From: an uncultured bacterium
GTDB lineage: Bacteria; Patescibacteriota; Minisyncoccia; Phycocordibacterales; PALSA-1337
Reading direction: 5' to 3'
NCBI GenBank assembly: GCA_903846945.1
Contig: CAINCE010000073.1
Span: 13,626-77,625 of the forward strand
Length of the DNA: 64,000 nt
In this document: piece after piece, positions 3,137 to 28,853 of the stretch
Numbering within the stretch: position 1 is the stretch's first letter
Layout: the number at the start of each line of letters is the position of its first letter
The notes under the pieces: model-generated
What the model was told of the DNA's origin: nothing
The model's input: only the letters and a program-made list of their open reading frames with translations
Databases searched by the model: none
Translations under genes and position numbers: made by a program

Positions 3137-5350
3137 TTAGTACCTCTTTGTGAATGGCTTTTTCACCATAGGAGTTTCTTCCTTCTTTGTAAAGAAGTCT
3201 GGATTTGCACCCTTGATGGACAGATTGATCCTGCCCTTGTCGTCGACCTCCTTCACAACTACTGGCACCTTGTCACCTTCTTTCAGGTATGTAGTGACTC
3301 TCTCGACTCGGAATGGAGCTATCTCAGAAACATGTACGAGACCCTCAGCATTGGCACCGATCTTCACAAATGCTCCAAAGTCCATGAGTCTCGTGACTTC
3401 CCCGTCGAACTTTTCACCGGGCATATACTCACGAGTCATGCCGATGATGATCTCTTTTGCTTTTTGTGCAGTCTCATTCTTACCTGTGATGAATATGGCG
3501 CCATCATCTTCTATGGTGATGTCTTCTACACCCGTGACATCACGGATCTCATTGATCGTCTTTCCTCCAGAACCGATGACTAGACCGATTTGTTCAGGCT
3601 TGATCCTTATAACTAGTATCTCTGGCGCATTTACAGATATTTTTGCACGAGGTGCAGCGATCTCATTTTCTATAACATCCAATATCTTGAAACGAGCGGC
3701 TTTGGCTTTTTCGAAGGCTTCGCTGAGGATCTTTAGTGGGATACCGCCAACCTTCACATCCATCTGTACGGCCGTGATACCATTTCGTGTACCCGCAACT
3801 TTGAAATCCATATCACCATGATGATCTTCTGGTCCTTGGATGTCAGTTAATACTTTGTATTCGAGTTCACTGCTACTCATTGGGTCACGAGGGGAGGATT
3901 CGGAAATCTTACCCTCTGGTTTACCTACAGTGCTTTTTTTTGCTTTTCTCATCATGAGGCCAGATGCGATACCAGCAACTGGTGCCTTTATCGGAACTCC
4001 CCCGTCCATGAGTGCGAGTGTTGAGCCGCAAACTGAGCCCATAGAAGTTGAGCCATTCGAAGCAAATGCTTCAGAAACGAGTCTTATCGTATATGGGAAT
4101 TTGTCTTTTTCTGGGATTACTGGGACGAGCGCTTTTTCTGCGAGTGCGCCGTGGCCTATCATGCGACGATTCGTCCCTCCGACTCTCCCTGTCTCGCCAG
4201 TCGAGAATGGTGGGAAGTTGTAGTGATGCATGAACCTTTTGTTTTCTGTAAGGCTCAATCCTTCTACTACTTGTGCGTCTCCAGGAGAACCTAGTGTGAG
4301 TGTTGACATGATGTGTGTTCCACCTCTGTAAAATATTCCTGAACCATGCAATATAGATGAGATTCCGCCAGCTTGGGCAAATAGTGGTCGCACATCGTCC
4401 ATTCCACGGCCGTCTGCGCGCTTGTTACCATCTATAGCACCATCATGGAGGAGGTCATTTACTGCTTCTTCGAACACTTCTTGGGCCATCATCGTATCGC
4501 CTTCGGGCATCTTTTCCTTGAACAATGTTGCCCATTCACCATTTATCTCGGATATTTTTGCGTGTCCTGGGACTTTGCTAAATATGAATTTCTCCATTTT
4601 AGGAGAGATCTCCTTGTCGAATAGCTCTTTCGTACCAGGAGTTGGTTCCTTGATCGCGACTTCTGCCTTTGGTTTACCTATCTCTGCGACGATCTTTGAT
4701 TGCCAGGCTTGTATCTTTTCTATTTCGGTGGAGGACAATTTAAGAGCCTCATTCAATGTGCTCTCAGAAACTTCTTTACTAGCTACTTCGATCATGTTGA
4801 TCATGCCGTCTTTACCACAAGCGACCATCTCTAAACTAACACCTAGGTCCTCGCGAACTTTGTAGTCAGGGTTGATGAGCCATTCGCTATTTTTTGCTAT
4901 ACGAACTGCAGATGCAGGTCCATTCCATGGTATATCTGATACTCCGAGCGCTAGTGATGAGGCGATAACTGCGACTACATCTGGGTCATCTTGACCTATG
5001 GCGAGTGTCGTAACTATAACCTGAACTTCATTTCGCATGCGTTGATTGAATAATGGGCGTATCGTACGATCTACTATTCGACCAGAAAGGATAGCATCAG
5101 TTGATGGTCTACCCTCTCGACGCATGAATCTCGACCCCAATATTTTACCAGTTGCATAAAACCTCTCTTCGAAGTCTACTGTTAGCGGGAAAAAGTCTCC
5201 GTCTTTGAGTCCTCCCATACATGCTGTTGCTAATAATGCAGTTTCTCCATAACGAACGATGACGGAACCATTGGTCTGGTCAGCGAGGTCGTTGAACTCA
5301 GCAGAAAGTGTCTTCCCGCCTATCTCGATCGAATATTGTTTTTTGTTCAT
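3137..5350 (-). CDS. pnp: polynucleotide phosphorylase
   Basis: 737 aa; two RNase PH domains with KH and S1 domains at the C-terminus (GEKFDGEVTRLMDFGAFVKI). Confidence 0.95.
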   Translation of the reverse strand: MNKKQYSIEIGGKTLSAEFNDLADQTNGSVIVRYGETALLATACMGGLKDGDFFPLTVDFEERFYATGKILGSRFMRREGRPSTDAILSGRIVDRTIRPLFNQRMRNEVQVIVTTLAIGQDDPDVVAVIASSLALGVSDIPWNGPASAVRIAKNSEWLINPDYKVREDLGVSLEMVACGKDGMINMIEVASKEVSESTLNEALKLSSTEIEKIQAWQSKIVAEIGKPKAEVAIKEPTPGTKELFDKEISPKMEKFIFSKVPGHAKISEINGEWATLFKEKMPEGDTMMAQEVFEEAVNDLLHDGAIDGNKRADGRGMDDVRPLFAQAGGISSILHGSGIFYRGGTHIMSTLTLGSPGDAQVVEGLSLTENKRFMHHYNFPPFSTGETGRVGGTNRRMIGHGALAEKALVPVIPEKDKFPYTIRLVSEAFASNGSTSMGSVCGSTLALMDGGVPIKAPVAGIASGLMMRKAKKSTVGKPEGKISESSPRDPMSSSELEYKVLTDIQGPEDHHGDMDFKVAGTRNGITAVQMDVKVGGIPLKILSEAFEKAKAARFKILDVIENEIAAPRAKISVNAPEILVIRIKPEQIGLVIGSGGKTINEIRDVTGVEDITIEDDGAIFITGKNETAQKAKEIIIGMTREYMPGEKFDGEVTRLMDFGAFVKIGANAEGLVHVSEIAPFRVERVTTYLKEGDKVPVVVKEVDDKGRINLSIKGANPDFFTKKEETPMVKKPFTKRY

Positions 5351-5629: not shown

Positions 5630-7153
5630 CTATTTAAAATGATTCAATGTATAGTCAATGAGAGCTCCTGCATCAGTTTTCTCGTCTGGTGATTTGAGGA
5701 TGATAGTGACGATCGGTCTCTTCGTGTTTCCGACTGGAAACTCGAATACAGATAGATTGGACTCGGCAGCTGCTGTAGTTTTTCCATTCTTGCCACCGAA
5801 GAAATACTCATTCTCGATGAAGTCGTTGAAATTACCAAGATCAGAGAATCCACTGGCGCCATAGGCGTTATCTTTGAGCTTGCCTGAAGTAATATTGAAT
5901 ATAAAACTGCGATTATTGTAGATATATTTAGCAAGCATGAACAAATCCTCGGCTGTTGAAATGTTGTCTTCCGAAGCGCCAGACGGATCAGTGAAATGGC
6001 TATGCGTCATGCCTATGGAGGCAGCCTTATCATTCATGTGTCGAATGAAATCGTCTCGTCCATAATATCGGGCTATAGTTTCTGCTGCCTCATTTGAGGA
6101 TTCCATCAGCAGAGGGAAAAGAAGCTGGTAGATAGTGTATTGCTGTCCCGGTTTCAACCGAGCTTTGGACGTATAGATTATAGCCGCTTTGGGTACAGTC
6201 GCAGTATTGTCTATGTTTATGTATTCTGTTGCTACCAATGCGGTAACTAATTTTGTGATAGATGCGATAGGTACAGATTCTGTGGAATTCTTGCTTGTGA
6301 AAACGTGATTGTTCTGTAGGTCAGCAGAAAGATATATAGGTGCAGAAAGTGACAGAACACTGTCTACGTACGAGAAATTATCAGGTGAAAAACTTTGTTC
6401 GAAGACGAGTACGGGAGTCCCAACGTCAATGGCATCGTAAACCTTTTCCGCGTCGTTGGTATCTAAACGTATGCATCCGCCCGTGTAGGCTTTTGATGTG
6501 AGGGTGCCATCCGGGTAATACGTTCGGCCGTGAATATAGAAATTTCCTTGGAAATTCATACTCCATGGCATCCAAACATGTCCCATTCCAGAAAAGTGAG
6601 ATTTTTCTTTACTACTGATTTTGTATAATCCTGCAGGAGTTTCCCACCATGAACCGGGCCGTCCTTTTGTAACGATTGGTACTTCCAAAACCAAAGTACC
6701 CTCTTTGTACGCTTGAATTTTCATTGCAGATAGATCAGCTTCAAGAAAATCAGCCTTACTATCGATAAATTGCTGTTTGACCTTGCCGAAAAAGTCAGGA
6801 TTAGATAAAGCTGGTTGCGCACCGTATGTAAATTGAACTTGTTGCAATGGCGGAGTTTCAGGAAGATTTACTGTATAGTTGAGAGTTTTATTTCCATAAG
6901 CGTAGGAAAATCCTCCAATGCCCATAACTGTTAATATGATAAGTATGATTGTTACGGCCGCTGGAACTTCTGAATGCAGAGTTCTCCAGAAGGAAAAGTG
7001 ACCAAGTTTCCCAGGAAATGAACTGTAGTAAAAGGCTTCTTTAATGTCGTCTTCAGTCCATCCATCCATAATTAGTTCGTTGCGGATTGCATCTATTGGC
7101 ATACCTGCACATTGTCTCGTTGTCACATGATTTACGAGTTGCTTATGATACAT
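5630..7153 (-). CDS. fusion protein: L,D-transpeptidase (YkuD) domain plus serine-type D-Ala-D-Ala carboxypeptidase (PBP5-like) domain
   Basis: 507 aa; N-terminal TM helix; HGRTYYPDGTLTSKAYTGGCIRLDTNDAEKVYD matches the YkuD catalytic His/Cys motif; C-terminal half has SITK (SxxK), SSN (SxN) and KNGKTTAA (KTG-like) motifs. Confidence 0.65.
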   Translation of the reverse strand: MYHKQLVNHVTTRQCAGMPIDAIRNELIMDGWTEDDIKEAFYYSSFPGKLGHFSFWRTLHSEVPAAVTIILIILTVMGIGGFSYAYGNKTLNYTVNLPETPPLQQVQFTYGAQPALSNPDFFGKVKQQFIDSKADFLEADLSAMKIQAYKEGTLVLEVPIVTKGRPGSWWETPAGLYKISSKEKSHFSGMGHVWMPWSMNFQGNFYIHGRTYYPDGTLTSKAYTGGCIRLDTNDAEKVYDAIDVGTPVLVFEQSFSPDNFSYVDSVLSLSAPIYLSADLQNNHVFTSKNSTESVPIASITKLVTALVATEYINIDNTATVPKAAIIYTSKARLKPGQQYTIYQLLFPLLMESSNEAAETIARYYGRDDFIRHMNDKAASIGMTHSHFTDPSGASEDNISTAEDLFMLAKYIYNNRSFIFNITSGKLKDNAYGASGFSDLGNFNDFIENEYFFGGKNGKTTAAAESNLSVFEFPVGNTKRPIVTIILKSPDEKTDAGALIDYTLNHFK

Positions 7154-8509: not shown

Positions 8510-9034
8510 TTATTTCTTCCCTCCGCCACCTCGTAGCAAGTATTTATTTGGACTCTCGTCTAGGTCCATGAAATGATCTGTAGCCTCGATGAGTTTTGCT
8601 GATGTAGATTTGCCGAATGAGACTACTTCAACTTGGCATCCCTGATTCATCTGTAGATATTCTACGAGTGGTACGAAGTCCCCGTCACCTGTTATGAGTA
8701 TGACCGCATCTAGCTTCGGTGATAGTTTGACTGCATCTATGGCGAGACCAACATCCCAGTCAGCTTTCTTTGCACCGGAACTGAAGATTTGGAGGTCTTT
8801 GACCTTTGTTTCGATACCCATTTTGGTAAGTGCGTCGAAAAAGGCATTTTCTTCACCTGATTCTGTGGCGATGACATATGCGACGGCACGAACGAGTTTG
8901 CGCCCGTCCATGGCATCTTTCACTATCTGACCAAAGTTAACCTTTGAATGATAGAGATTCTTGGCACTGTGATATAGATTTTGTGCGTCTATAAATATTC
9001 CGACGCGTTGTTCTTTGTGTTTGATGATAGACAT
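8510..9034 (-). CDS. NYN/LabA-like domain protein
   Basis: 174 aa; IFIDAQNLYHSAKN...VILITGDGDFVPLVEYLQ typical of NYN (DUF88) nucleases. Confidence 0.75.
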   Translation of the reverse strand: MSIIKHKEQRVGIFIDAQNLYHSAKNLYHSKVNFGQIVKDAMDGRKLVRAVAYVIATESGEENAFFDALTKMGIETKVKDLQIFSSGAKKADWDVGLAIDAVKLSPKLDAVILITGDGDFVPLVEYLQMNQGCQVEVVSFGKSTSAKLIEATDHFMDLDESPNKYLLRGGGGKK

Positions 9035-12653: not shown

Positions 12654-14141
12654 CTAATTTACATTGTGTTTACTATGTATTTCGGAGATGAGTTTTTCTT
12701 CTTCTAACTCTTTTCTTTCTTTTCCCTTCTCGGACAATGCTCGCAAATCGGTTTCGGAAAGAGAATTCATTTCTTTTGTGCGCTTGGTTAGGTATTCTTC
12801 TGTATTCAATTTCGGATCGTCCAAAACCTCTTCTAGTAGTGCACTCAAGATCATCCCGATCTTTGGTCCAGGGGTTATGTTGAGAACCTGCATGATTCCC
12901 TTCCCATCAATCTTCAACATAGTCACAGATACTGGATCCATGAGAGCTTGATCTATCATCGCCTTGTATTTGCGTAGTCTGAATGGGTTTTCCTTGGGTC
13001 TACCAGTGCCTATGCGGTCACAAGCCCTCAGATTCATCAGGTCCCAGATGTTTTCACGGCCAACATTGACCACCATACGACGGACCGCGGAAAGACTAAT
13101 CATTGCTGTATCAGCGAAAAACATATGCCAACGCACGAGTTTAGTCACTTTTTCGATGGTTACACGTGAAAACTTCATTCTTTCGAGGATTTTACGTGTT
13201 TCACGTGAACCAACTACTTCGTGGCCGTAAAACGTCGGTTGCTGTGTTTCACGTGAAAAACCCTTTGTCTGTGGCTTTGCAATATCATGAAATAGAGCCG
13301 CCAAACGGATTTCTAGGTCCCATTTACGGTCTGCGGCATGCTGGACACTACGGATGAGGTGGTTCCAGACGTCATATGTGTGAGCTTGTGGCTGTTCGAC
13401 CCCAATTCCCCTCTCGAGTTCTGGAACGATGTATTGTAATAGGCCAGCGTCATGTAACATCAAGAGTCCATTCATAGGACTGTCGGACGTGATGATCTTG
13501 GTGAATTCATCACGAACTCGCTCTACCGAGACACCTTTTATGAACGAGTTCTGGCTCTGTATAGCCTTCATGGTATCTCTGTTACACGTGAAATCTAATT
13601 CTACAGCGAGTCGGATGGCACGCATCATGCGTAGGGCGTCCTCGTTGAAGCGGTCACGAGGCGCACCTACTGTTCTGATAGATTTGTCCTTTATGTCTGC
13701 AAATCCTCCGTATAAGTCGATTATGTCCTTTATAGCCCCATTGGAAAGAGACACCGCGATCGCATTTACTGTAAAGTCGCGTCTCATGAGATCGTCCTCT
13801 ATTTTGTCGCTAAAGTTCACTACATCTGGATGTCTGCGGTCTGAATACCCTTTTTCCATACGATATGGTGTGACTTCGATGTTTTTCAGTGTTTTTTCTT
13901 CAGTTTCCTCATTTATCACGCAAACCGTTCCAAAAGTGTTCTCGTATACAGTTTTTACGAATAATGCCTGGATCTGCTCTGGTTTTGCGTTGGTCGTAAC
14001 ATCCCAGTCTTTTGGCGCTCTACCTAAGAATAGATCACGAACGCATCCTCCGACGAGATAAGCCTGAAAACCGCCCTTTTCAAGGGTTTCCACGACAGTG
14101 ATGACTTCGGATGGAATTGTACTGCTTTTTACGGCTTTCAT
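12654..14141 (-). CDS. cca: CCA tRNA nucleotidyltransferase with HD domain
   Basis: 495 aa; FQAYLVGGCVRDLFLGRAPKDWDVTT polymerase-beta head plus HD domain (LFHDIAKP). Confidence 0.9.
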   Translation of the reverse strand: MKAVKSSTIPSEVITVVETLEKGGFQAYLVGGCVRDLFLGRAPKDWDVTTNAKPEQIQALFVKTVYENTFGTVCVINEETEEKTLKNIEVTPYRMEKGYSDRRHPDVVNFSDKIEDDLMRRDFTVNAIAVSLSNGAIKDIIDLYGGFADIKDKSIRTVGAPRDRFNEDALRMMRAIRLAVELDFTCNRDTMKAIQSQNSFIKGVSVERVRDEFTKIITSDSPMNGLLMLHDAGLLQYIVPELERGIGVEQPQAHTYDVWNHLIRSVQHAADRKWDLEIRLAALFHDIAKPQTKGFSRETQQPTFYGHEVVGSRETRKILERMKFSRVTIEKVTKLVRWHMFFADTAMISLSAVRRMVVNVGRENIWDLMNLRACDRIGTGRPKENPFRLRKYKAMIDQALMDPVSVTMLKIDGKGIMQVLNITPGPKIGMILSALLEEVLDDPKLNTEEYLTKRTKEMNSLSETDLRALSEKGKERKELEEEKLISEIHSKHNVN

Positions 14142-18577: not shown

Positions 18578-19351
18578 CTAATACGTATCTTTTATCGAAT
18601 CAAACATGAAATCAAACATCTTTTCGAACGTTTCGCGTACGGATGCGTTTTCTATGATGGTGATGATAAGTCCACTTTTGAAGTCTGTTATCGACACTTT
18701 GTCTCCGTAAATGATGATTTGTGCTGGGATATAGAAACCATCTGGTATAGTTTTGCGTGTGACGTTGCGGGCCTTGTCTTTCTTTATCAATACGTCCATA
18801 GGAACATCCTCTCTCTTTGGGCCGATGAGTTTTACTTTGATGCCAATTTTCGCTTGTTTTTCGATGTGGGCGCGTAATATCGATGCGGTATCGATATCTT
18901 TGTGATCAAGTAAAGATCTTATCAGTTTTATATCTTTACCTTCGGCTAATATGTCATTATACATTTCCTTTAGTCCATCTGACCCTTCCAGGAATTGAAT
19001 GTTCGGTTTACCAGAAAGCAGGTTAAATTTGGAAGATAGTAAGCCAAATGAATCGTTAAATACAATGTTTGCTTGATCACTTGTTTGCTTTTCTTCTTCT
19101 AGGATGATCTTGATCCTGTTTGGGTGAACAGGGAAGAACATAGATATCTTTCCAACATCATCTCGCTTGGTAATGATACCCTTTTCGACCAGTTGAGCTA
19201 GAACTTTGTAGCAAAGTGCCCGGCCCAGGTTCGTTTTTGTCGAAATAACTCTGGCATTGCATAGTCCATTTTCAAGCAGAAATAAATATATCTTTGACTG
19301 CTCTCTAGTCAGTCCTATGTCGACAAGTGTTTTTTCATCATAGTTTGTCAT
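18578..19351 (-). CDS. TrmB-like HTH transcriptional regulator
   Basis: 257 aa; N-terminal wHTH (LTREQSKIYLFLLENGLCNARVISTKTNLGRALCYKVLAQLVEKGIITK); paralog of 28074..28853 in inverted orientation. Confidence 0.6.
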   Translation of the reverse strand: MTNYDEKTLVDIGLTREQSKIYLFLLENGLCNARVISTKTNLGRALCYKVLAQLVEKGIITKRDDVGKISMFFPVHPNRIKIILEEEKQTSDQANIVFNDSFGLLSSKFNLLSGKPNIQFLEGSDGLKEMYNDILAEGKDIKLIRSLLDHKDIDTASILRAHIEKQAKIGIKVKLIGPKREDVPMDVLIKKDKARNVTRKTIPDGFYIPAQIIIYGDKVSITDFKSGLIITIIENASVRETFEKMFDFMFDSIKDTY

Positions 19352-20020: not shown

Positions 20021-20022
20021 CG

Positions 20023-20075
20023 TTGCTTCTCGGAATGTGTATTCCGACTGATGAGTCTGAAAGGACGAAAAGCAA
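20023..20075 (+). ncRNA. hammerhead ribozyme, type III (HHR1)
   Basis: TTGCTTC / stem I TCGGAAT-GTGT-ATTCCGA / CTGATGAG / stem II GTCT-GAAA-GGAC / GAAA / AAGCAA; stem III 6 bp; predicted cleavage after UUC at 20029. Confidence 0.8.
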
Positions 20076-20153
20076 AATTCAGGACTTTAATATATTGGTT
20101 ACATACAATATTCTTCATAGTAACTTGGCGATATCATTTGTCGACAGCTTACT

Positions 20154-20342
20154 ATGAAGAAAGTCGTAGACTCCATCAGTGCAGCAGCTGCTGAAAAAGC
20201 AGCTGAGGCGACGAAGGAAGTACTCAGTGGGTTCAAGCCTGCTGAGAGGCTTCTCCTAGTCGGTCTCGCACTGATCGGACTCGCCATCATTTCTGCAGAT
20301 GGCGAGAAAGAAAAGCAGAAGGGTTCTAGGAAATCCCACTAA
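20154..20342 (+). CDS. small membrane protein, hypothetical
   Basis: 62 aa; one TM helix (LLLVGLALIGLAIISA); directly downstream of HHR1. Confidence 0.4.
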   Translation: MKKVVDSISAAAAEKAAEATKEVLSGFKPAERLLLVGLALIGLAIISADGEKEKQKGSRKSH

Positions 20343-20346
20343 ACAC

Positions 20347-20368
20347 GCTCGTATTCCTAGATACGAGC
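20347..20368 (+). terminator. hairpin GCTCGTAT-TCCTAG-ATACGAGC immediately upstream of HHR2
   Basis: 8-bp perfect stem starting 5 nt after the stop of 20154..20342. Confidence 0.45.
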
Positions 20369-20370
20369 AA

Positions 20371-20418
20371 CTGTCTCGGAATATCGTTCCGACTGATGAG
20401 TCTGAAAAGACGAAACAG
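20371..20418 (+). ncRNA. hammerhead ribozyme, type III (HHR2)
   Basis: CTGTC / stem I TCGGAA-TATCG-TTCCGA / CTGATGAG / stem II GTCT-GAAA-AGAC / GAAA / ACAG; stem III ACAG:CUGU; cleavage after GUC at 20375. Confidence 0.8.
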
Positions 20419-20478
20419 AGTAGTTCTTCACATATTGTATTCATGTAGCTTGCGTCTATATCCTTGGTCGCAGACTAC

Positions 20479-20850
20479 ATGAATACAAACAACAAAGAGG
20501 TAGCCGCAAACTCTATAAAAGCGGTAGAGGCGTACAGGGCACAGATCGCCAATCTGCAGAGTCAAATCTGCAAATTGGAAGAGGCGGCCGCGGTCGCCAT
20601 GGAGACACTCGTCGGGGCGAAGGTTGCCGACGGCTGGAAGAAGTTTGAATACTATTCCAGCTACTACGGGTCGCATAGTGAGCTCGGTGAGGGTGATGAG
20701 GAGAGGACGCTCCTCTTTCACCCCAGTGTGGACTTGTCCACATGGGACGGTGTGTCGTTCTCGCATGGCCATCGTGGCCAGAGCGAGGAAAACGGGCGGT
20801 TCTGTAAGTGGCTCTCCGGTCTCCCGGAAGGTCACTACATCGAACTGTAG
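20479..20850 (+). CDS. hypothetical protein
   Basis: 124 aa from MNTNNKEV; coiled-coil N-terminus; follows HHR2; GC-rich. Confidence 0.4.
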   Translation: MNTNNKEVAANSIKAVEAYRAQIANLQSQICKLEEAAAVAMETLVGAKVADGWKKFEYYSSYYGSHSELGEGDEERTLLFHPSVDLSTWDGVSFSHGHRGQSEENGRFCKWLSGLPEGHYIEL

Positions 20851-20851
20851 T

Positions 20852-20956
20852 GATTTACCTGCTGTAACAGGTTGATTTAACCGGACGAGTCTTTACAGAG
20901 ATTCCTCCACTTCATTGAGCCGTATGAGTGAAAGATTCTCGTCGGTTCATAGAGTT
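20852..20956 (+). ncRNA. conserved structured RNA element, copy A (unclassified)
   Basis: About 105 nt near-identical to 22629..22733: hairpin ACCTG-CTGTAA-CAGGT; hairpin GACGAGTCTT-TACA-GAGATTC..; palindrome CTCAATTGAG; hairpin ATGAG-TGAAAGATT-CTCGT. Covarying base pairs between the two copies. Confidence 0.55.
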
Positions 20957-21140: not shown

Positions 21141-21315
21141 TCGGCTTAGTAACACCTCTAACCAAGGTTGCCACAAAATTCCTCCTTCGCTCTAATGAGC
21201 TATGGAGGGACAAGCCGGTGGTGTAAATCAAGGTAAAGAGTTTTGTCCCCGTCTTTCTCAGAAAAGACGGAGAGCCTAGAGGAAGCAGAGCCTCACCGAG
21301 ATATATCTCTCGGTT

Positions 21316-21388
21316 CTGTCTCGGAATATCGTTCCGACTGATGAGTCCCTCTACATCCTATTCGGGGTGAGAGTGAAGGACGAAACAG
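21316..21388 (+). ncRNA. hammerhead ribozyme, type III with extended stem II (HHR3)
   Basis: CTGTC / TCGGAATATCGTTCCGA / CTGATGAG / extended stem II GTCC-CTCT-A-CATCC-TATTC-GGGTG-AGAG-TGAA-GGAC / GAAA / ACAG. Upstream hairpin CCGAGAT-ATAT-CTCTCGG at 21295..21312. Confidence 0.75.
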
Positions 21389-21410
21389 AGTTGGTCTTTA
21401 AAATCAAATT

Positions 21411-21765: not shown

Positions 21766-21796
21766 GCGTAATTCCGAGGGGAAGCTCCTCGGCGCC
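21766..21796 (+). repeat. motif GCGTAATTCCGAGGGGAAGCTCCTCGGCGC (hairpin)
   Basis: Near-identical copy on the minus strand at about 25266..25296; both sit between a gene end and a hairpin+HHR. Confidence 0.5.
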
Positions 21797-21814
21797 TGGT
21801 GAGCGGAAACTACT

Positions 21815-21834
21815 GGAAAGATGCAAATCTTTCC
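21815..21834 (+). terminator. hairpin GGAAAGAT-GCAA-ATCTTTCC immediately upstream of HHR4
   Basis: 8-bp perfect stem 2 nt before the ribozyme. Confidence 0.45.
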
Positions 21835-21836
21835 TT

Positions 21837-21909
21837 CTGTCGCGAAGTTGAACTTCGCCTGATGAGTCCCTCTACATCCTTTTCGGGATGAGAGTGAAGG
21901 ACGAAACAG
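21837..21909 (+). ncRNA. hammerhead ribozyme, type III with extended stem II (HHR4)
   Basis: CTGTC / stem I GCGAAGT-TGA-ACTTCGC / CTGATGAG / same extended stem II as HHR3 / GAAA / ACAG; followed by the same acagagttggtctttaaaat spacer. Confidence 0.8.
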
Positions 21910-21926
21910 AGTTGGTCTTTAAAATT

Positions 21927-22628: not shown

Positions 22629-22733
22629 TATTTACCTGCTGTAACAGGTTGATTTTAACCAGACGAGTTTTTACAGAAACTCGTCTACTCAATTGAGCTG
22701 TACGAGTGAAAGATTCTCGTCGGTTCATAGAGT
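22629..22733 (+). ncRNA. conserved structured RNA element, copy B (unclassified)
   Basis: See copy A; hairpin here is GACGAGTTTT-TACA-GAAACTCGTC (the C:G pair in A is U:A in B) and ACGAG-TGAAAGATT-CTCGT (U:G in A becomes C:G in B). Confidence 0.55.
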
Positions 22734-23026: not shown

Positions 23027-23375
23027 TCGTAGGAAAGACTTCCAAAGGATCACTCTAACCTTCTCAAAAGAGTGTATTGTCACCGTAAGAACAATGGTGA
23101 GAGATTTCAAAACACCGTACGAAAGTGCGGTTTTTTCATAGTGAATAAGAGCGTTTTTTACATTGTCCCAAAAACGGAACCACCCCCTTTCGGGGGTTCT
23201 GTAAGCTTTATTGCCGTGAATATTACAGTGAATGCGTGCAAGTTGTGCTAGAGGTATCTTATGTGCTAACATATGCATACACAGAGACATTATCCGAACT
23301 GTCACCGGACGGTGGCTTGGTTGGGACAACCAACATAGGTAGTGTATCGGGAAATCGCCCTTCGGGGCTTTTTCT

Positions 23376-24032
23376 TTATTTAAATCGCCATTCATCCTCG
23401 ATATGTTTCCGAATGATCTTTTTGTAAATAATTCCATCTTGTTTGTTACCCTCATAACTCCTCCGTATGCTCCCAGCGATCATATCAGCCAATTGGATGA
23501 GCACGTTATCTTTTGAGTCTGAAAACTTCAAATTTGAAATCACCTTAATTCCATTTGAGTTAAGAGATTTTCGTAGGTATGATGAAAAATTCCTCCGGAA
23601 AGCCCTGTCTCCACTACCATCAAGCTTGATCTTTGCTTCTAGAATACTCATATCACTGTGTTTCAGTAACATCTTTATGGAATAACTATAAAATGAATTC
23701 TTGTCATTTTTTAACTCATCACTATGTAGGATGGTCTTGTCTATAACCAGTGTTCTAACTTTAAATGCAAACACGTTGATAGTATTCATGAAACCTAGAC
23801 GGACTTTTTTGTTTGACTTGTTAAACTTGAATTCCATCGTATCTGGAAATCCGATACTTCTCCTAAACTCTTTTATGGCCACGGCAACCTTTTCGGCTTC
23901 TAACGGATCGTCGAATATGACAGCGGCAATAACAAAAATCTTGCTCGATCCTCTTTCGAATTTGAATCCAGCATCACCGGAATCATCGATGAATACTAAA
24001 GTTTGCGAATTTTGTGTGTGTTTGCTAAGCAT
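23376..24032 (-). CDS. DUF3800 family protein
   Basis: 218 aa; LVFIDDSGDAGF at the N-terminus and LIQLADMIAGSI near the C-terminus are DUF3800 hallmarks; AT-rich gene inside a GC-rich island. Confidence 0.65.
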   Translation of the reverse strand: MLSKHTQNSQTLVFIDDSGDAGFKFERGSSKIFVIAAVIFDDPLEAEKVAVAIKEFRRSIGFPDTMEFKFNKSNKKVRLGFMNTINVFAFKVRTLVIDKTILHSDELKNDKNSFYSYSIKMLLKHSDMSILEAKIKLDGSGDRAFRRNFSSYLRKSLNSNGIKVISNLKFSDSKDNVLIQLADMIAGSIRRSYEGNKQDGIIYKKIIRKHIEDEWRFK

Positions 24033-24400
24033 ATCGTGGAACTATTATACTCTCGAAATATTGATTGGCTAGTGAGGACAAAAAATCCCCACGAGGCTAC
24101 GGATATAGACATAGGACTTAGTCGAGAAGCGGTGTTTAGAGGAGAGAGATTTTGCAATCACTCACACCGCCTCGCTACATAATCCGATATCATACCCATA
24201 GCCCCGCGGGGACTCGTGTTTAGACACTAATAATAACTCAATGAGCCTGTAAACCTCTAAATTTATAGGCTCAATAAAGTGGAGATTTTCTTGAAATCTC
24301 CAGAAAAGCACCGAGAAACCAATCTCGGAAACCATTATCGCTCCACTCTGCGATCGAGGAAAGTTTTAGAGGGTGACTTTCAACCTATTGACGTCAGCTA

Positions 24401-24940
24401 TTATACCGACGTCTTCTGGAGCCGCGCCATCGCGTGCTCCCACGCGACCGCAGCAGCGGTCGCATCGTACATGGGGTGGTGCGCCACCCCCGCGAACGGC
24501 ACCGCGATGCCGTTCTTTTTGTTATATGCGTCCACTGAGGACGCGTCCTCGCTCAGTGCGAGGAGCGCCGTGCCTAGGTCATGTAGGCACGGATAAGGGC
24601 CCTCGAAGGCCCGTTCGTCGAGATTTCTCTCGACGCAGCGGCGGAACAGCCCCGATTCCACGGGGCTACCGCAATGGGCGATCACAGTCGCCCCTACCTT
24701 TTGGGCCTGCCAAAAGGCCCAGAAGGCCTCTTCCAACTCCTCCGAAGAGGAGTGGGAGACCGGCATCCCCGCCAGAGCGGGGAGAACGTTTGCACGCACC
24801 CAGCCGTCCGACACGGCTGAGTCGGCGATCCGGCCCTCGAAGCGGGCCGTTTCCACACCGTCCACCCGGACGGTCGCGGCGATTGCGAATGACGGGCCAT
24901 ACAGCCCGTCAACTTCTGCGTCACAACTAAAGATTTTCAT
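24401..24940 (-). CDS. DEDDh-type 3'-5' exonuclease (DnaQ-like fold), putative
   Basis: 179 aa, GC-rich; IFSCDAEVDGL (Exo I D-x-E), AHCGSPVESGLF (Exo II-like), HHPMYDATAAA (Exo III H-x4-D); GAGG 13 nt upstream of ATG. Confidence 0.5.
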   Translation of the reverse strand: MKIFSCDAEVDGLYGPSFAIAATVRVDGVETARFEGRIADSAVSDGWVRANVLPALAGMPVSHSSSEELEEAFWAFWQAQKVGATVIAHCGSPVESGLFRRCVERNLDERAFEGPYPCLHDLGTALLALSEDASSVDAYNKKNGIAVPFAGVAHHPMYDATAAAVAWEHAMARLQKTSV

Positions 24941-24954
24941 AATATTCCTACCTC

Positions 24955-25135
24955 TCTATTCGTCCAACAATCTCTTTCTAATCACACATCGTGCGACTAC
25001 ATCCCTCCTCCAGGAATGCTCAACTGAGAAAAAAGACCACCGAAGTTTCGATTGGTAGAATGTATTCATTATGTTCGAGCTTATCTTCTGTAATGATAAT
25101 GAATACGTTCCACCAATCGATAGTAGTAGAAACAT
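24955..25135 (-). repeat. 181-bp conserved 5' leader, copy 1, upstream of the DEDDh exonuclease gene
   Basis: About 95% identical to 27186..27366; contains a roughly 24-bp imperfect hairpin (cgattggtggaacgtattcattat ... ataatgaatacattctaccaatcg). Confidence 0.7.
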
Positions 25136-25146
25136 ATGATATTTTT

Positions 25147-25197
25147 CTGTTTTCGTCCTTTCGGACTCATCAGTCGGGATACACATCCCGAGAACAG
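25147..25197 (-). ncRNA. hammerhead ribozyme, type III (HHR5, minus strand)
   Basis: Minus-strand read: CTGTTC / TCGGGA-TGTGTA-TCCCGA / CTGATGAG / GTCC-GAAA-GGAC / GAAA / AACAG; stem III 5 bp; cleavage after UUC. Preceded on the minus strand by hairpin GGAGAAGCTTTTGGTTAAAAGCTTCTCC (25199..25226). Confidence 0.75.
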
Positions 25198-25335
25198 TGG
25201 AGAAGCTTTTAACCAAAAGCTTCTCCATTTAACCTATGAAGTATTTTCCGCGTGCCTCATCATCACGCGCCGGGGAGCTTCCCCTCGGAATTACGCGGTA
25301 TGTTTATAGTCTTACCGATAAGACTTGAAGTGCTA

Positions 25336-25671
25336 CTACGGCAGCAATTGGTTGCCGTGTTGCTCACGGAGCTTGGCCATTCGTTTGGCCACCCTCCTCT
25401 GCATCGCCGCATACCTGTGCGGCGGTTCGGTGAATCCGGGAACTTCCCGGTTATGTGCGAGGTCGTCGCACATCTGCTCCACCATGATGGCAAGGATGAA
25501 CTCCTTGTCATCATGGGTGAATTCCTGGGACTCGCCCAGGTCCTGTGTCCAAACCAAGTATGGTCGCACTAGCGACTCATACTGGCTGCCGATACTGATT
25601 CCGGCGGCAGTACCCAAATTTTCTGATGTATTCATGCAACCTATTTCCGATCCTTCAGAAACAAATTGCAT
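25336..25671 (-). CDS. hypothetical acidic protein
   Basis: GC-rich ORF; start uncertain (the track's N-terminus MEKLLVKSFST is a translated palindromic hairpin); DKEFILAIMVEQMCDDLAHNREVPGF. Confidence 0.3.
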   Translation of the reverse strand: MQFVSEGSEIGCMNTSENLGTAAGISIGSQYESLVRPYLVWTQDLGESQEFTHDDKEFILAIMVEQMCDDLAHNREVPGFTEPPHRYAAMQRRVAKRMAKLREQHGNQLLP

Positions 25672-25812
25672 GAATACATCTAAGACTCTAAGAGCCAACC
25701 TCCTGGGAGACCGGCTCAATAAAGTGGAGAAGCTTTTAACCAAAAGCTTCTCCATTTAACCTTGCGACGATTTATCCAGTAACGGAAAGGAAGTCGCTGT
25801 TCCTTTGTTGTA

Positions 25813-26424
25813 TTAGGTCATTGCCCGTATAACGGACAGTGAGACGTCTCTGGGGGCGTCACTCTCTCCGACGGGATGCAACCCACCCCTCCAACTCTCG
25901 AGGGCTTCGGTGTACATCCCATGTTTGGTGGGATGATACACATGCGCGGGCTCGCCTCGCAAGAAAGCCCCGTTGGTCCACCAGAATAAAATTAGGGAAA
26001 TGCACTCTTTGTCTTTGTGTGCTTTCCCGTATTCTGATTTGTACCCAGAATCGATAAGGAGCTGCCAGTCAATGTCTGGTAGCTCCTCGACCAACCATTC
26101 CGGGTGGCCGTGATCTTCCCATTGGATTAACTCGTCCAATGGTAGGAAGATGTCTTTCTGAAACACTAGTTTCAGAAAGTAATTCTGTAAATTTTCCGAG
26201 CACAACCGCGTGCTCGCTTCTAGGAGTTGCCGTTGCAACTCCTTGTTCAGCCAGTAGGAGATCTTTCCGTCTCCTGACTGGATGTACCCCTTACAGGTCA
26301 GGCGGTTCGCGCCTGACCTGTAGGTCGTTTCACGAGTCCCCATGCCATCGGGGGACTCGTATTTAACTACTGTTTGCGTGCCGAACGGCTCAACGTCGGC
26401 ACGCAACATTCTCATTTGCGACAT
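25813..26424 (-). CDS. hypothetical protein
   Basis: 203 aa; AAGGAGG 9 nt upstream of ATG on the minus strand; no motif recognised. Confidence 0.5.
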   Translation of the reverse strand: MSQMRMLRADVEPFGTQTVVKYESPDGMGTRETTYRSGANRLTCKGYIQSGDGKISYWLNKELQRQLLEASTRLCSENLQNYFLKLVFQKDIFLPLDELIQWEDHGHPEWLVEELPDIDWQLLIDSGYKSEYGKAHKDKECISLILFWWTNGAFLRGEPAHVYHPTKHGMYTEALESWRGGLHPVGESDAPRDVSLSVIRAMT

Positions 26425-26785
26425 TTTAATGCCCTCCTTCTAGGGCATGTTTCCACAACTTGTTTCGCATGTGGATTGCGGTTCGAGAAGATCATTCTCT
26501 ATCAACCGTCAACATGGAAGTTGTTGGCTGAATAAAGCGGAGAAATTTACGTATTCTCCAATTGACTTTCGTCACGGCAAGCAACCACGCCTGCAACCCG
26601 ATCTAGGATTGACCTCCATCCTTGATCATTATAGGAGTATTCAGATTTGTCTTGCGACAGGTCTCATACACAAAACCTTTTTACTTTTTTTGACACGACC
26701 AGTTTGTCCCTCCGAAGCCTGTTGGGGCGAAGGAGGAATTTTGTCGCAACTATAGGCTATCCCTATAGGTTTTTACGTCCAGAGC

Positions 26786-27172
26786 TTAGTAGCTGTGGAC
26801 GAGACGGAAGCCCTTGAACGTGAAGATGAACTCCTTCTTCACGGTCCCGTCCGGCTGCGGGATGTCCTTAGACACCCGCGGTGTGACGCTCTCAACGAGC
26901 TCAGCGCCAGCCTGGCGTGCCAGCGCCTGCACAGCGCTAGCCAACTGAGCCTGACCCATAATGTGGGCCACGTCGCCGGCGGAAAATCCGCCGACCGCCA
27001 AGGCGATTTCCTCGGCGCGCTGGACAAACCAGTCACGACCTAGATTGGCGTCGTCCGGAACGATCAAGAGCTTCTTGTCGTTCACCTGGACCACTTCACG
27101 TCCGCCTTCGGACGCCGCGGTGATCTGTTCCGCCGTGGGGACGTGGGACATTATAAATGCAAAAGTTTTCAT
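26786..27172 (-). CDS. small hypothetical protein P2, paralog of 19582..19965
   Basis: 128 aa MKTFAFIMSHVPTAEQ...LLIVPDD...GAELVESVTPRVSKDIPQPDGTVKKE. Confidence 0.5.
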   Translation of the reverse strand: MKTFAFIMSHVPTAEQITAASEGGREVVQVNDKKLLIVPDDANLGRDWFVQRAEEIALAVGGFSAGDVAHIMGQAQLASAVQALARQAGAELVESVTPRVSKDIPQPDGTVKKEFIFTFKGFRLVHSY

Positions 27173-27185
27173 ATTTTTTCTACCA

Positions 27186-27366
27186 TCTATTCGTCCAATA
27201 ATCTCTTTCTAATCACACATTGTGCGACTACATCCCTCCTCCAGGAATGCTCAACTGAGAAAAGAGACTATCGAAGTTTCGATTGGTAGAATGTATTCAT
27301 TATGTTCGAGCTTATCTTCTGTAATGATAATGAATACGTTCCACCAATCGAGAGTAGTAGAAACAT
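27186..27366 (-). repeat. 181-bp conserved 5' leader, copy 2, upstream of P2
   Basis: See 24955..25135. Confidence 0.7.
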
Positions 27367-28073
27367 GCACACGCTTAGGAATCGTTTTATACGATCCCTC
27401 TTATCATGCCGATCTAGAAGTTTGTTACGCTATCGGTCAGCATGACGAAGAGGAATAACATCTAGTGGTATTGCAAAAAAGCAATATTATTCCACCAGTT
27501 TCCTATCATTCGCTATTTCATTTTCAAATTACTTCCTTGATCTTACCGTCACTCCCGATCTCTCTAAAAGATCGGCTTCTGGTTACAAGGACATTTCTGG
27601 GAGCAAATGTGGTTAGCATTCACTCACAGCAGATGTCATTGCGACACTGTGTAGATATCGGACTATAGTCATCACTACCCGTCGGGAGTGACCTTTCTCA
27701 TAGATCTGGTTCGTTTGCAGGGAACCGTCACTATGTAAGCGATATCTGGCAAACAAGATAACAAATGGCTGTTGTCCTTCTCACTCTCTCCTCTTTACCA
27801 TGCTTAGCGGGGTCAAACCCGAGGCCATGGTGCCTGCCCAACATAGGGACTAGAGGTGAAAAGCAATCATTCACTATCTTCATTACTGTAAGGAACTATC
27901 GTTTCCGAACTTCATCTCATCTGGCATAATCATAACATTTATTAACTAGAATGTCAATACACAATGACACGGAACTGTGAGATGTCAGAATAGCCCGTGA
28001 CAAAGCCAGAATAATGGCTTATCCACACATTGTACTTGTCACAAATCCGTGACGATGATATGCTATATTCATC

Positions 28074-28853
28074 ATGTATGAACAAACACTTACAAATGCG
28101 GGGCTTTCAAAAGAGCAGGCATCCGTTTATCAGCTCCTCATGCAGGGAGGATTGACTCCTGCAGGCGTTATTAGCAAAAGGGCGGCCCTAAAGCGTGGTT
28201 TGACGTATAAAGTCCTAGAACAGCTCATAAATATGGGTTTAGTTCAGAAAAGGGACGATCTAGGCAAAATAACGCTATTTCAAGCATCTCATCCTGGCGT
28301 ATTGAGGAAACTTACTGAAACCAAGGCCGAGGAGGTAAAGAACGCCCAAGTATCATTGGAATCAGTGATGGGTAAGATGGTATCAGACTATAATTTGGTG
28401 ACGGGGAAGCCAAATGTGCAGTTTTTCGAAGGTTTGGAGGGGGTAAGGAGGGTATTGGATGATTCTCTGAGTGCTACTGGTGTGATCTATTCATATGCAG
28501 ATATTGAATCAATCGAGAAATATATACATGGGGTTAACGAAAAATACGTTGAAAAGCGTGATAAGTTCAATATCAAAAAGAAAGCAATAATACTAGATAC
28601 GCCATTTGCACGTGATTTTTTGAAAGATTACCATCGAGAAACTACTGATATCAAGCTTATCAAACATGATTCACCTCCATTTCATACAGTTATGCAGGTT
28701 TACGACAACAAGGTTAGTTATATTACGCTGTCTGAAAAGGAAATGATCGGTGTTATCATAGAAGACCCGCACATCTTTGAGATGCATAAATATCTGTTCG
28801 AATATTCTTGGGATAAGGCGGAATCATTGCCGAAACTAGATACTCCTAAATAA
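28074..28853 (+). CDS. TrmB-like HTH transcriptional regulator
   Basis: 259 aa; LSKEQASVYQLLMQGGLTPAGVISKRAALKRGLTYKVLEQLINMGLVQK; paralog of 18578..19351. Confidence 0.6.
   Translation: MYEQTLTNAGLSKEQASVYQLLMQGGLTPAGVISKRAALKRGLTYKVLEQLINMGLVQKRDDLGKITLFQASHPGVLRKLTETKAEEVKNAQVSLESVMGKMVSDYNLVTGKPNVQFFEGLEGVRRVLDDSLSATGVIYSYADIESIEKYIHGVNEKYVEKRDKFNIKKKAIILDTPFARDFLKDYHRETTDIKLIKHDSPPFHTVMQVYDNKVSYITLSEKEMIGVIIEDPHIFEMHKYLFEYSWDKAESLPKLDTPK

Follow-up and report, generated by a model that had tools for sequence, protein, structure and literature searches.

The structured leader that stands in two nearly identical copies before two minus-strand genes of the window (the whole 64,000-nucleotide stretch of DNA that was analysed) is read here, with moderate confidence, as a lineage-restricted, portable 5'-UTR cassette that would lock the ribosome-binding site (RBS) of whichever gene follows and would also serve as a recombination substrate for gene shuffling. 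This reading is drawn from modelled RNA folds and from comparisons between strains. The leaders are located in an island of ~8 kb (~20.0–27.9 kb) in the chromosome of an uncultured groundwater bacterium of the CPR (Saccharibacteria-like). The island, which is hypervariable and rich in accessory genes and RNA modules, contains five type III hammerhead ribozymes, a DUF3800 gene (23376–24032), a DUF3800-IX RNA (23284–23352, above the Rfam threshold) and several other repeated structured modules.

Extent and predicted fold of the leader

A repeat search of the window gave a family of two copies of 181 nt each. The first-pass annotation of this DNA had placed them at 24955–25135 and 27186–27366 with an identity of about 95%; the two-copy repeat was recovered as described, with an identity of 97% (six differences). 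The homology reaches past these positions, across the Shine–Dalgarno (SD) region to ATGAAA, and the full leader unit measures ~200 nt on the minus strand (24938–25137 for copy 1 and 27170–27368 for copy 2), beginning with a 5' CAU and ending with the start codon and one Lys codon. In the alignment, the full units are identical at 187 of 199 positions. Copy 1 (haplotype A; 233 bits with the covariance model) runs from 5' (C)AU..GUUUCUAC to the ATG at 24940–24938 of a 179-aa gene, and copy 2 (haplotype B; 229 bits) ends at the ATG at 27172–27170 of a 128-aa gene. The genes behind the two leaders are unrelated, as that annotation had claimed (BLASTP E = 16 between the proteins), and the upstream flanks differ, copy 1 being preceded by a hammerhead ribozyme and copy 2 by a long hairpin (the X element); the repeat therefore does not, again as claimed, belong to a larger segmental duplication.

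The 179-aa gene (24401–24940, minus strand) had been labelled a DEDDh exonuclease. Sequence searches of Pfam and PDB do not support this label, which is backed instead by the invariant residues D7/E9/H154/D159 and by an AF2 model (pLDDT 91.7) that matches Pol III epsilon, RNase T, TREX1 and ExoX, pointing to a DnaQ-like DEDDh 3'–5' exonuclease fold. The 128-aa gene (26786–27172, minus strand) has a precomputed match to PF27247 (MJ1673), and a third protein encoded behind the leader, in the related locus L064, is Cys-rich and 142 aa long. The three proteins have no mutual similarity.

Structure beyond a single hairpin had also been proposed for the leader, and the folding z-scores of the minus-strand RNA bear this out (−5.2 for copy 1, folded with its hammerhead, and −7.9 for copy 2, folded with its upstream element). 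The predicted fold has three parts: a closing helix (P1), a hairpin (P2) and a four-way junction (P3). P1 joins the 5' end of the leader to the SD region and the AUG, since 5' CAU..GUUUCUAC is complementary to GUAG(G/A)AA..AUG at the other end. According to the base-pair probabilities, the 5' or anti-RBS strand of P1 (UGUUUCUACU, 25125–25134, minus strand) pairs with 24943–24952, which is the P1 3' strand within the SD-like AGAGAGGUAGGAAUA (24943–24957, minus strand), and the start codon (24938–24940) is predicted to be able to pair with the 5' CAU; in copy 2, 27356–27365 is paired with 27175–27184 (minus strand). P2 (25048–25120, and 27279–27351 in copy 2, minus strand) is a 25-bp hairpin with one G·U pair, one mismatch and the 23-nt loop noted in the first-pass annotation. 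The repeat search recovered its arms on the minus strand as 25-nt stretches, 92% complementary and 23 nt apart (25048–25072/25096–25120 in copy 1 and 27279–27303/27327–27351 in copy 2), and the arm sequence is confined to the two repeat copies (four arm matches against zero expected in shuffles). The junction (24963–25044, and 27194–27275 in copy 2, minus strand) is composed, in the consensus structure of the same strand, of the P3 helix (25029–25044/24963–24978), P3a (25019–25028), P3b (25000–25018) and P3c (24979–24999). A possible loop–loop contact of the P2 loop GCUCGAAC with GUUGAGC of P3a was calculated at −8.3 kcal/mol.

The consensus structure comprises 69–74 pairs; over four haplotypes, 99.6% of cells are paired, compared with 40–51% when the partners are slid. 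Substitutions between the haplotypes keep pairing, with double compensatory changes at four pairs in a sample of four DNA haplotypes from one lineage that represent approximately three independent events. The G·U to A–U changes are consistent with the minus strand only, and many single changes fall at G·U pairs, where any transition keeps the pair. P1, P2, P3a and P3b never vary, so that covariation supports P3 and P3c only. The P2 hairpin is unchanged across all haplotypes; however, adjacent non-coding DNA is also 99–100% identical between strains, the strain comparisons being mosaic, and the invariance of P2 is therefore not readable as purifying selection. Purifying selection on P1, P2, P3a and P3b as a whole was rejected on the same grounds.

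The ribosome-binding site and the upstream reading frame

In the four haplotypes, the RBS region (−18 to +3) has an unpaired probability of 0.17–0.33 and the AUG one of 0.00–0.13, with the P1 strands near 0. Among 31 other genes of the window, used as a control, the median is 0.44 (range 0.27–0.62); occlusion in the leader is thus at the low end of the range of the genome, yet overlaps it at the lowest control value. In the ground state of RNA thermometers and translational riboswitch platforms, the SD sequence and AUG are paired with an anti-SD strand located upstream. The leader resembles such SD-sequestering elements in that, as modelled, its SD sequence and start codon are paired with an upstream strand in the dominant fold. 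Unlike them, its anti-RBS strand is located ~180 nt upstream, in a helix that closes the whole multi-domain structure, it matches no ligand-binding family, and inspection by eye gave no alternative pairing for the anti-RBS strand.

These features bear on whether the leader is a regulatory sensor, as had been suggested in the first-pass annotation, in which P1 would open in response to a signal. The signal could be a small molecule acting on a riboswitch, an sRNA or a protein, such as the DUF3800 protein, the exonuclease or a target of the flanking TrmB-like regulators. A multi-helix junction, invariant loops and junctions, an RBS held in the closing helix as in translational riboswitch platforms and the possible contact of the P2 loop with P3a would all suit such a regulated element. 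However, we consider it unlikely, the riboswitch form in particular; a leader answering to a protein or an sRNA is conceivable. A helix mutually exclusive with P1 was not seen by eye. A riboswitch would be expected as an aptamer across many taxa and before genes of one ligand pathway, whereas the leader was found in one species-level lineage and its three downstream genes share no function. Rfam 15, scanned with three stretches at the gathering threshold (GA) and at E ≤ 10, gave no family for the leader or the X element; the matches of the leaders were to generic miRNA-precursor models only (15–26 bits, against GA values of 67–100), which arise because the leader has a long hairpin. When 46–62 related loci were searched with nhmmer and with a calibrated covariance model (R1), matches came from the same lineage only, with 666 kb of related CPR loci scanned. 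A JGI metagenome scan returned one true match and three chance matches to a 19-mer, two viral-contig pattern scans did not find the leader, and a search of 5.8 billion proteins with a spurious 90-aa ORF spanning the hammerhead and leader added one cluster.

The best complement to an anti-SD sequence in the unit is the exposed GGAGG loop of P3b (25007–25011, and 27238–27242 in copy 2, minus strand; unpaired probability ~0.99), which is followed by AUG-UAG at 25002–24997. Its pairing energy is −14.6 kcal/mol, compared with −4.2 to −12.5 kcal/mol for real SD regions, as computed with an assumed generic 16S tail that may not be that of the host. The loop may act as a ribosome standby site, an idea that depends on this assumed anti-SD, and most core genes of the genome have no SD motif and appear nearly leaderless. 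Given such core genes, the SD-bearing structured leaders of the island point to a separate mode of initiation for accessory genes.

An AUG in the 3' arm of P2 (25069–25067) starts an upstream ORF (uORF). In haplotype A the uORF is 37 codons long, with its end 13 nt upstream of the main AUG, so that a ribosome could conceivably pass through P3 to the UAG before the SD sequence, melt P1 and couple uORF translation to that of the main gene. This coupling would gain from the fact that the same AUGAAUAC start, also inside a hairpin, begins two real island genes. It is nevertheless highly improbable: the uORF is reduced to ten codons in haplotype B (by an in-frame UAG), has 32 in haplotypes C and D and stops after SKLQ in P0121, unlike the conserved translated small ORF of a leader-peptide attenuator; the substitutions track RNA pairing and not codon structure; and the uORF AUG is buried in a 25-bp helix without a good SD sequence. 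The idea that the leader is the decayed 5' end of an 'MNT...' gene was rejected, as just the 9–10-nt AUGAAUACA core is common to two real gene starts. The two proteins with AUGAAUACA-type gene starts are unrelated, and since the same start is also found in other phyla, it looks like a favoured start context and not a mark of shared ancestry.

The island and exchange of genes behind the leader

A type III hammerhead ribozyme is located directly 5' of copy 1 (25145–25199, minus strand; 37.6 bits, E = 2.6e-5, below the GA of 48.5 and thus not an Rfam-threshold match). As modelled, it has the core CUGAUGA...GAAA, three stems, of which stem III is open, and a cleavable NUH, with predicted cleavage between 25192 (C17) and 25191. 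Its stems covary among eight copies with intact cores, a covariation to be taken qualitatively only, MAFFT having put stem III one column off; the same arrangement is found in L064. The first-pass annotation had mentioned neither the hammerhead abutting copy 1 nor a role of recombination in the island. A hairpin termed D8 (GGAGAAGCUUUUGGUUAAAAGCUUCUCC, 25196–25235, minus strand), with a second copy at 25723–25762, abuts the 5' side of the cleavage site. Directly 5' of copy 2 is the X element (27378–27453, minus strand), a long hairpin whose stems are conserved and whose tip varies, together with a small hairpin; the element is conserved in L064, in L004/L011 and in the more distant L007. The best promoter-like site for the minus-strand operon (27929–27957, minus strand; TTGACA-17-TATGAT with a TG extension, 11/12) is ~560 nt upstream of copy 2 and divergent from a TrmB gene (28074–28853). 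The leader itself has no usable promoter, and the suggestion of a shared promoter cassette was accordingly dropped: its sole sigma-70-like match scores 9/12, with a −10 hexamer that overlaps the ATG. Neither copy has a terminator-like site inside it, and P2 has no U-tract behind it.

From these elements, a course of expression can be proposed. Transcription of the island would start at the promoter at 27957–27929 and yield a long RNA, which the hammerhead would cut at 25192/25191, so that the downstream mRNA would start with the ribozyme and leader. P1 would then keep the RBS and AUG inaccessible, so that translation would be low or conditional. With an anti-RBS strand of its own, the cassette would be expected to behave alike in any upstream or downstream context and hence to be exchangeable. 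As DNA, the leader copies would provide portable homology through which recombination deletes, inserts and swaps ORFs, and the duplication of the leader in the window would itself be a product of recombination between such copies.

It may be asked whether the element instead governs processing or stability, with RNase III acting on P2 or the folded 5' region serving as a stabilizer, and, together with the hammerhead, sets the ends and half-life of monocistronic mRNAs from a long transcript rather than their translation. The near-perfect helix of at least 20 bp, the adjoining self-cleaving ribozyme, the D8 hairpin that would cap the upstream 3' end and the RNase Y encoded in the genome are compatible with this, and for hammerhead clusters that flank variable genes a part in the processing of long transcripts has been proposed (PMC3088659). 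However, the window contains no RNase III gene, copy 2 and haplotype C have no hammerhead, and a unit that ends exactly at, and pairs with, the SD sequence and AUG would be left unexplained; the probability of this alternative is accordingly small.

How the copies act as DNA is seen in related strains. One of them lacks exactly the 2,231-bp unit between the leader copies and bears a chimeric leader. The inter-copy segment (25136–27166, minus strand), with 128-aa, 203-aa and ~100-aa genes, D8 hairpins and a hammerhead, is missing in L011/L004, L011 corresponding to the window minus 27166–25136; judged by sequence, this loss matches what would be expected of a crossover between leader copies. 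Haplotype C is chimeric, with a B-like 5' end and an A-like 3' end. In L064, the D8 hairpin, hammerhead and leader are followed by the unrelated 142-aa ORF, which gives a third context and, relative to the window, an ORF-for-ORF swap behind the same hammerhead and leader. Homology with L064 stops 6 nt into the CDS and restarts 15 nt past the stop codon, at a conserved 3' module (24270–24386, minus strand) that begins 15 nt after the stop of the 179-aa gene and follows the 142-aa ORF in L064. The leader therefore precedes three unrelated ORFs, each starting AUG-AAA with the start codon correctly spaced, and, of the options raised in the first-pass annotation, that of a shared UTR cassette is the one that fits: a self-contained, structured minus-strand leader before unrelated genes.

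The deletion polymorphism and the chimeric haplotype, which show that the copies recombine, would equally suit a neutral scar, that is, DNA duplicated by cassette insertion or illegitimate recombination, with no RNA function and a fold incidental to old hairpin-rich sequence. The very narrow distribution is also in keeping with such a scar, and conservation alone is uninformative because the whole regulatory region is near-identical among strains. However, the unit ends coincide exactly with the two P1 strands and the start codon, the compensatory changes, three of them in P3c and the fourth in P3, maintain the helices despite falling in a 36-nt patch that is just 61% identical between alleles, and the unit has been kept at the correct spacing before three different ORFs. 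Furthermore, a Komeilibacteria MAG, from another phylum, carries an analogous design of unrelated sequence, in which a hairpin, a hammerhead and a ~270-nt leader are repeated 4.29 kb apart before different genes. For these reasons a neutral scar appears improbable.

The Komeilibacteria locus would be a second instance if the leader exemplified an undescribed expression architecture of the CPR, in which bare ORF cassettes stand between standardized RNA adaptors, namely a hairpin capping the 3' end, a hammerhead and a leader that locks the RBS while exposing an SD-like standby loop. Transcript processing and insulation, gating of translation and homology for plug-and-play ORF exchange would all be supplied by these adaptors. 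We regard this wider proposal as possible but doubtful.

Comparison with known systems

RiboJ combines a self-cleaving ribozyme with a hairpin before the RBS, and both RiboJ and bicistronic designs were engineered to expose the RBS. Copy 1 is similar in that a fixed structured leader stands behind a ribozyme and would make the RBS context independent of the upstream sequence, and haplotype A, as in bicistronic designs, has a short upstream ORF that ends at the SD sequence; however, the natural leader is predicted to occlude the RBS. If the favoured model of an RBS-locking cassette is true, the leader would be a natural 'insulator' part that could be placed before any ORF to impose the same translational gate.

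Promoter-early stem-loops (PeSLs) are mobile regulatory cassettes of T4-type phages (Arbiol et al., 2010, PMC2839356; Comeau et al., 2014, PMC4122927). They are ~50–100 bp long, contain a sigma-70 promoter and a terminator stem-loop and act on transcription in phage genomes (PMC2839356; PMC4122927). The leader shares with them the form of a short conserved non-coding cassette repeated between variable ORFs (mostly ORFans of a hyperplastic region in the case of PeSLs), as well as recombination between copies that leads to indels and replacements among close relatives, here the L011 deletion and the L064 swap. In contrast to PeSLs, it is a ~200-nt, multi-helix, RBS-enclosing 5' UTR in a CPR chromosome, with neither a strong sigma-70-like promoter nor a terminator stem-loop. 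A phage origin was rejected, as the leader and the 20–32 kb region have no DNA match in 50,697 phage records; in PHROGs, only the DUF3800 protein was matched among ten island and flanking ORFs. Integron attC sites, imperfect hairpins with R''/R' (RYYYAAC/GTTRRRY) core sites downstream of each ORF and an accompanying IntI, were also rejected: the P2 arms (TCGATTGG.../...CCAATCGA) lack GTTRRRY, the unit is upstream of ORFs and no IntI integrase was found among the island ORFs scanned. The island would be a concrete case of an uncultured, genome-reduced CPR bacterium shuffling accessory genes by recombination in conserved structured RNA sequences and not by integrases.

Clustered hammerheads flank variable genes in prophages, in an arrangement that suggests long transcripts cut into single-gene mRNAs (Perreault et al., 2011, PMC3088659). 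Similarly, the five type III hammerheads punctuate the short variable genes of the island, and one abuts copy 1. The leader differs from these clusters in not being a hammerhead, in that copy 2 is without one, in its CPR host and in the lack of detected phage genes; the passages of PMC3088659 consulted make no mention of a conserved RBS-enclosing leader fused to a ribozyme.

DUF3800-associated RNA motifs (Weinberg et al., 2017, PMC5737381) provide a further comparison. As in DUF3800 loci (PMC5737381), a DUF3800 gene and a DUF3800-IX RNA occur in a locus crowded with unrelated structured RNAs, whereas the leader matches none of the DUF3800 motifs in Rfam and is associated with the start codons of genes other than the DUF3800 gene. 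The leader might also be a new protein- or ligand-responsive riboregulator tied to these unexplained RNAs. It would in any case add a new structured RNA to a type of locus, with DUF3800 genes and their RNA motifs and with hammerhead clusters, that has been puzzling since 2011–2017.

Borders of the repeated leader

A repeat search of the window returned a two-copy direct repeat of 181 nt at 24955–25135 and 27186–27366, as the first-pass annotation had described, although its estimate of approximately 95% identity was revised to 97%. Each copy carries a 25-nt inverted repeat with 92% complementary arms and a 23-nt spacer, in agreement with the imperfect hairpin of about 24 bp and 23-nt loop noted originally. 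The arm sequence is absent from the rest of the 64-kb window (0 matches expected in shuffles); the locus was recovered again from related strains. In the alignment, similarity continues past the Shine–Dalgarno (SD)-like region up to ATGAAA, with 187 of 199 positions identical; because the homology reaches this point, the unit is about 200 nt long (24938–25137 and 27170–27368, minus strand). The upstream minus-strand flanks are unlike, with a hammerhead ribozyme before copy 1 and a different conserved hairpin before copy 2, and the encoded proteins that follow (179 and 128 amino acids) are unrelated. The original observation is thus borne out and, as the first-pass annotation had stated, the repeat is not a piece of a larger duplication.

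The 179-aa protein (gene at 24401–24940, minus strand) gave no sequence match in Pfam or the PDB. However, D7, E9, H154 and D159 are conserved in its family and its AF2 model (pLDDT 91.7) matched DnaQ-like DEDDh exonucleases at a TM score of ∼0.6–0.67, which makes the original DEDDh exonuclease label reasonable.

The best-supported reading of the repeat is a portable 5′-UTR cassette. A common regulator or shared UTR cassette had been proposed, of which the UTR cassette was retained and the riboswitch and promoter variants were not. The suggested Rfam scan was run and no family matched the leader. Across 666 kb of loci, those of related CPR among them, both nhmmer and a calibrated covariance model recovered the unit from this lineage only. 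Neither of two viral scans gave a match and phage records contained none to the leader or the island DNA; a JGI metagenome scan gave one true match. A regulated sensor leader is considered unlikely, and its riboswitch form is disfavoured by this narrow distribution and by the functionally unrelated downstream genes. No usable promoter was found within the leader, which argues against a promoter cassette; the best promoter of the minus-strand operon is located at 27957–27929 (TTGACA-17-TATGAT).

Predicted fold and predicted occlusion of the start codon

RNAalifold and single-sequence folds agreed on the structure. In the closing helix P1, the 5′ strand UGUUUCUACU (25134–25125, minus strand) is predicted to pair with GUAGGAAUA of the SD region (24952–24943), and pairing between the start codon and the CAU just before this strand is possible. 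P2 (25120–25048) is a 25-bp hairpin and P3 (25044–24963) is a four-way junction with a 3-bp P3a, P3b and P3c, in which the P3b loop presents GGAGG (25011–25007); further structure between the hairpin and the SD-like sequence had been noted originally. Shuffled sequences fold far less stably (z = −5.2 and −7.9 for the two predicted folds). Another RNA-level reading, in which the unit is an RNase III site or a stability element, is considered very improbable.

Related-strain loci came from look-ups of exact proteins, from a scan of GTDB and from a single scan of metagenomes, and gave haplotypes A (window copy 1, L013), B (window copy 2, L002, L003), C (L004, L011) and D (L064), with a fifth deduced from a translated spurious ORF (protein cluster P0121). 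Standard pairs make up 99.6% of the pair cells in the four-sequence alignment, compared with 40–51% with slid partners, and double compensatory changes occur in three pairs of P3c and one of P3, four in all, in a comparison that represents only about three independent events. Several G·U pairs of one haplotype are A–U or G–C in another, which is sensible for the minus-strand RNA only. P1, P2, P3a and P3b are invariant, so that covariation neither supports nor contradicts them, and this invariance is not readable as selection because adjacent noncoding DNA is equally identical between strains.

With 210 nt upstream included, the unpaired probability in the four haplotypes was 0.17–0.33 over positions −18 to +3 and 0.00–0.13 at the AUG, compared with a median of 0.44 (range 0.27–0.62) for 31 other window genes; the predicted ribosome-binding site of the leader lies at or beyond the most closed extreme that the genome shows, the two ranges overlapping slightly. 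The GGAGG loop (predicted unpaired 0.99) would pair with an assumed, generic anti-SD at −14.6 kcal/mol, whereas the real SD regions are weaker (A, −12.5; D, −9.6; B, −4.2). From structure prediction and limited covariation, we infer that at the RNA level the cassette's own closing helix would lock the ribosome-binding site and start codon, with the GGAGG loop possibly a standby site, and that the cassette would be delivered at the operon head or following hammerhead processing. Coupling to an upstream ORF is likewise very improbable. The ORF starting from the AUG in the P2 3′ arm differs in length between haplotypes (37, 10 or 32 codons) and so is not a conserved peptide.

A minimal start–stop ORF, AUG-UAG (A, B) or AUG-UGA (C, D), occurs 4 nt after the GGAGG loop (25007–24997 and 27242–27232, minus strand) and survives the compensatory rewrite of P3c; chance is possible at roughly 1 in 5. 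Four hairpins share the motif GUAUUCAU...AUGAAUAC (0 expected by chance), namely 20437–20486(+), 25628–25677(−) and P2 of both leaders. In two of the four, a real gene starts at the AUG, the two genes being unrelated and both proteins beginning MNT, and AUGAAUAC also marks gene starts in L007 and L019. The island thus seems to make a habit of burying start codons in the 3′ arm of long hairpins, a further example being 20104–20168. Most core genes have no SD motif, and many have a TATAAT-like box ending ∼6–11 nt before the ATG (for example, upstream of 14788, 58153, 7595, 24032 and 1362–3020), suggesting that leaderless or near-leaderless mRNAs are widespread. Strong SDs occur in a few island genes, such as AAGGAGGG before 26424; long SD-bearing island leaders are atypical for this genome.

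Exchange of reading frames between strains

At the DNA level, the cassette copies provide homology for deleting, inserting or swapping ORFs, and strain comparison, with breakpoints taken from BLAST, directly shows this role. From the TrmB gene to copy 2 inclusive, L011 and the window are collinear; L011 then passes directly to the 179-aa gene, thus lacking a 2231-bp unit equal to one leader copy plus the inter-copy segment (25136–27166). Its leader, of haplotype C, resembles B at the 5′ end and A from P3 on, as would be expected of a crossover inside the invariant P2 region. In L064, the D8 hairpin (25196–25235, minus strand, in the window), hammerhead and leader share 90% identity with the copy 1 region; homology ends 6 nt into the CDS, where an unrelated 142-aa ORF follows, and restarts (97%) 15 nt past the point that corresponds to the stop codon of the 179-aa gene. 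From these breakpoints, the leader and a conserved 3′ module bracket ORF-exact replacements. The leader precedes three unrelated ORFs, each beginning Met-Lys. That the repeat is a neutral scar has only a small probability.

Island setting and neighbouring RNA modules

The window is bacterial chromosome, encoding PNPase, CCA-adding enzyme, RNase Y, H+-pyrophosphatase, type IV pilus genes, RecJ and four tRNAs. The island (∼20.0–27.9 kb; G+C ∼0.50 versus 0.43) is made up of small ORFs arranged in two convergent operons, and the nearest public relatives of its genes are in uncultured groundwater MAGs and in Candidatus Saccharibacteria or other CPR phyla. Genes for two winged-helix regulators of the TrmB family lie one at either flank (18578–19351, minus; 28074–28853, plus), each divergent from one operon; the right-hand gene of L011 is just 67–81% identical to the window in its C-terminal half, as against 99–100% in its N-terminal part and the promoter region. 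A DUF3800 gene (23376–24032, minus) is met at its 3′ end by a convergent DUF3800-IX RNA (23284–23352, plus; 43.1 bits, above the Rfam threshold), after which comes a terminator-like hairpin; the function of this RNA is not established in the literature (PMC5737381).

Small island genes are punctuated by type III hammerheads with intact CUGAUGA/GAAA cores (20022–20076, 20368–20421, 21313–21391 and 21834–21912, plus; 25145–25199, minus). All five score 37–42 bits, below the Rfam gathering threshold of 48.5, so that a default scan misses them; their stems covary and stem II comes in two sizes. The minus-strand hammerhead lies directly 5′ of copy 1 (predicted cleavage 25192/25191), and the stable D8 hairpin adjoins the 5′ side of this site. 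GGAGA...UCUCC hairpins of the D8 type (25196–25235, 25723–25762 and 24280–24302, minus) stand immediately 5′ of a hammerhead cleavage site or a common ACUUUAUUGAGCC motif, and might serve as a 3′ cap for the upstream cleavage product or stack against the short stem III. The hairpin-AC-hammerhead junction recurs in the Komeilibacteria MAG L019 (8581–8611).

In that MAG, a hairpin, hammerhead and ∼270-nt AT-rich leader occur twice (hammerhead plus leader at 8609–8883 and 12902–13174), 4.29 kb apart and 90–96% identical, in front of different genes. Three consecutive genes are each preceded by an 80-nt leader with GGGAGGAGATATGAAAA at its end (5264–5343, 5991–6070 and 6756–6835). These repeats are unrelated to the leader in sequence; the architecture recurs. 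Among described systems, the nearest analogues are the PeSL cassettes known from T4-type phages (PMC2839356) and, as outlined in PMC3088659, hammerhead clusters flanking variable prophage genes. Unlike PeSL, which acts on transcription, the unit has neither promoter nor terminator and is proposed as a translational element.

Further noncoding modules lie in the island, several of them repeats returned by the repeat search. The X element, a long hairpin (window 27378–27453, minus; L064 1880–1960, minus; L007 2115–2235), stands at the head of the minus-strand operon, preceded by ∼450 untranslated nucleotides. Its basal stems, CCUCUU-C-GUCAUGCUGA/UCGGCAUGAU-AAGAGG, are shared without change even by a Saccharibacteria MAG that is more distant, its tip varies from 24 to 50 nt and a small covarying hairpin comes after it. 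A small hairpin with an 80-nt two-hairpin module (20853–20955 and 22630–22733, plus; L013 6500–6620, minus), without an Rfam match, is located after the stop codons of two genes unrelated to each other, with compensatory changes in six pairs among three copies. Two modules are common to both operons, 21167–21244(+)/26673–26750(−) at 78% and 21766–21802(+)/25260–25296(−) at 92% identity; they are oppositely oriented, hence of the same transcript sense, and each lies just past a stop codon.
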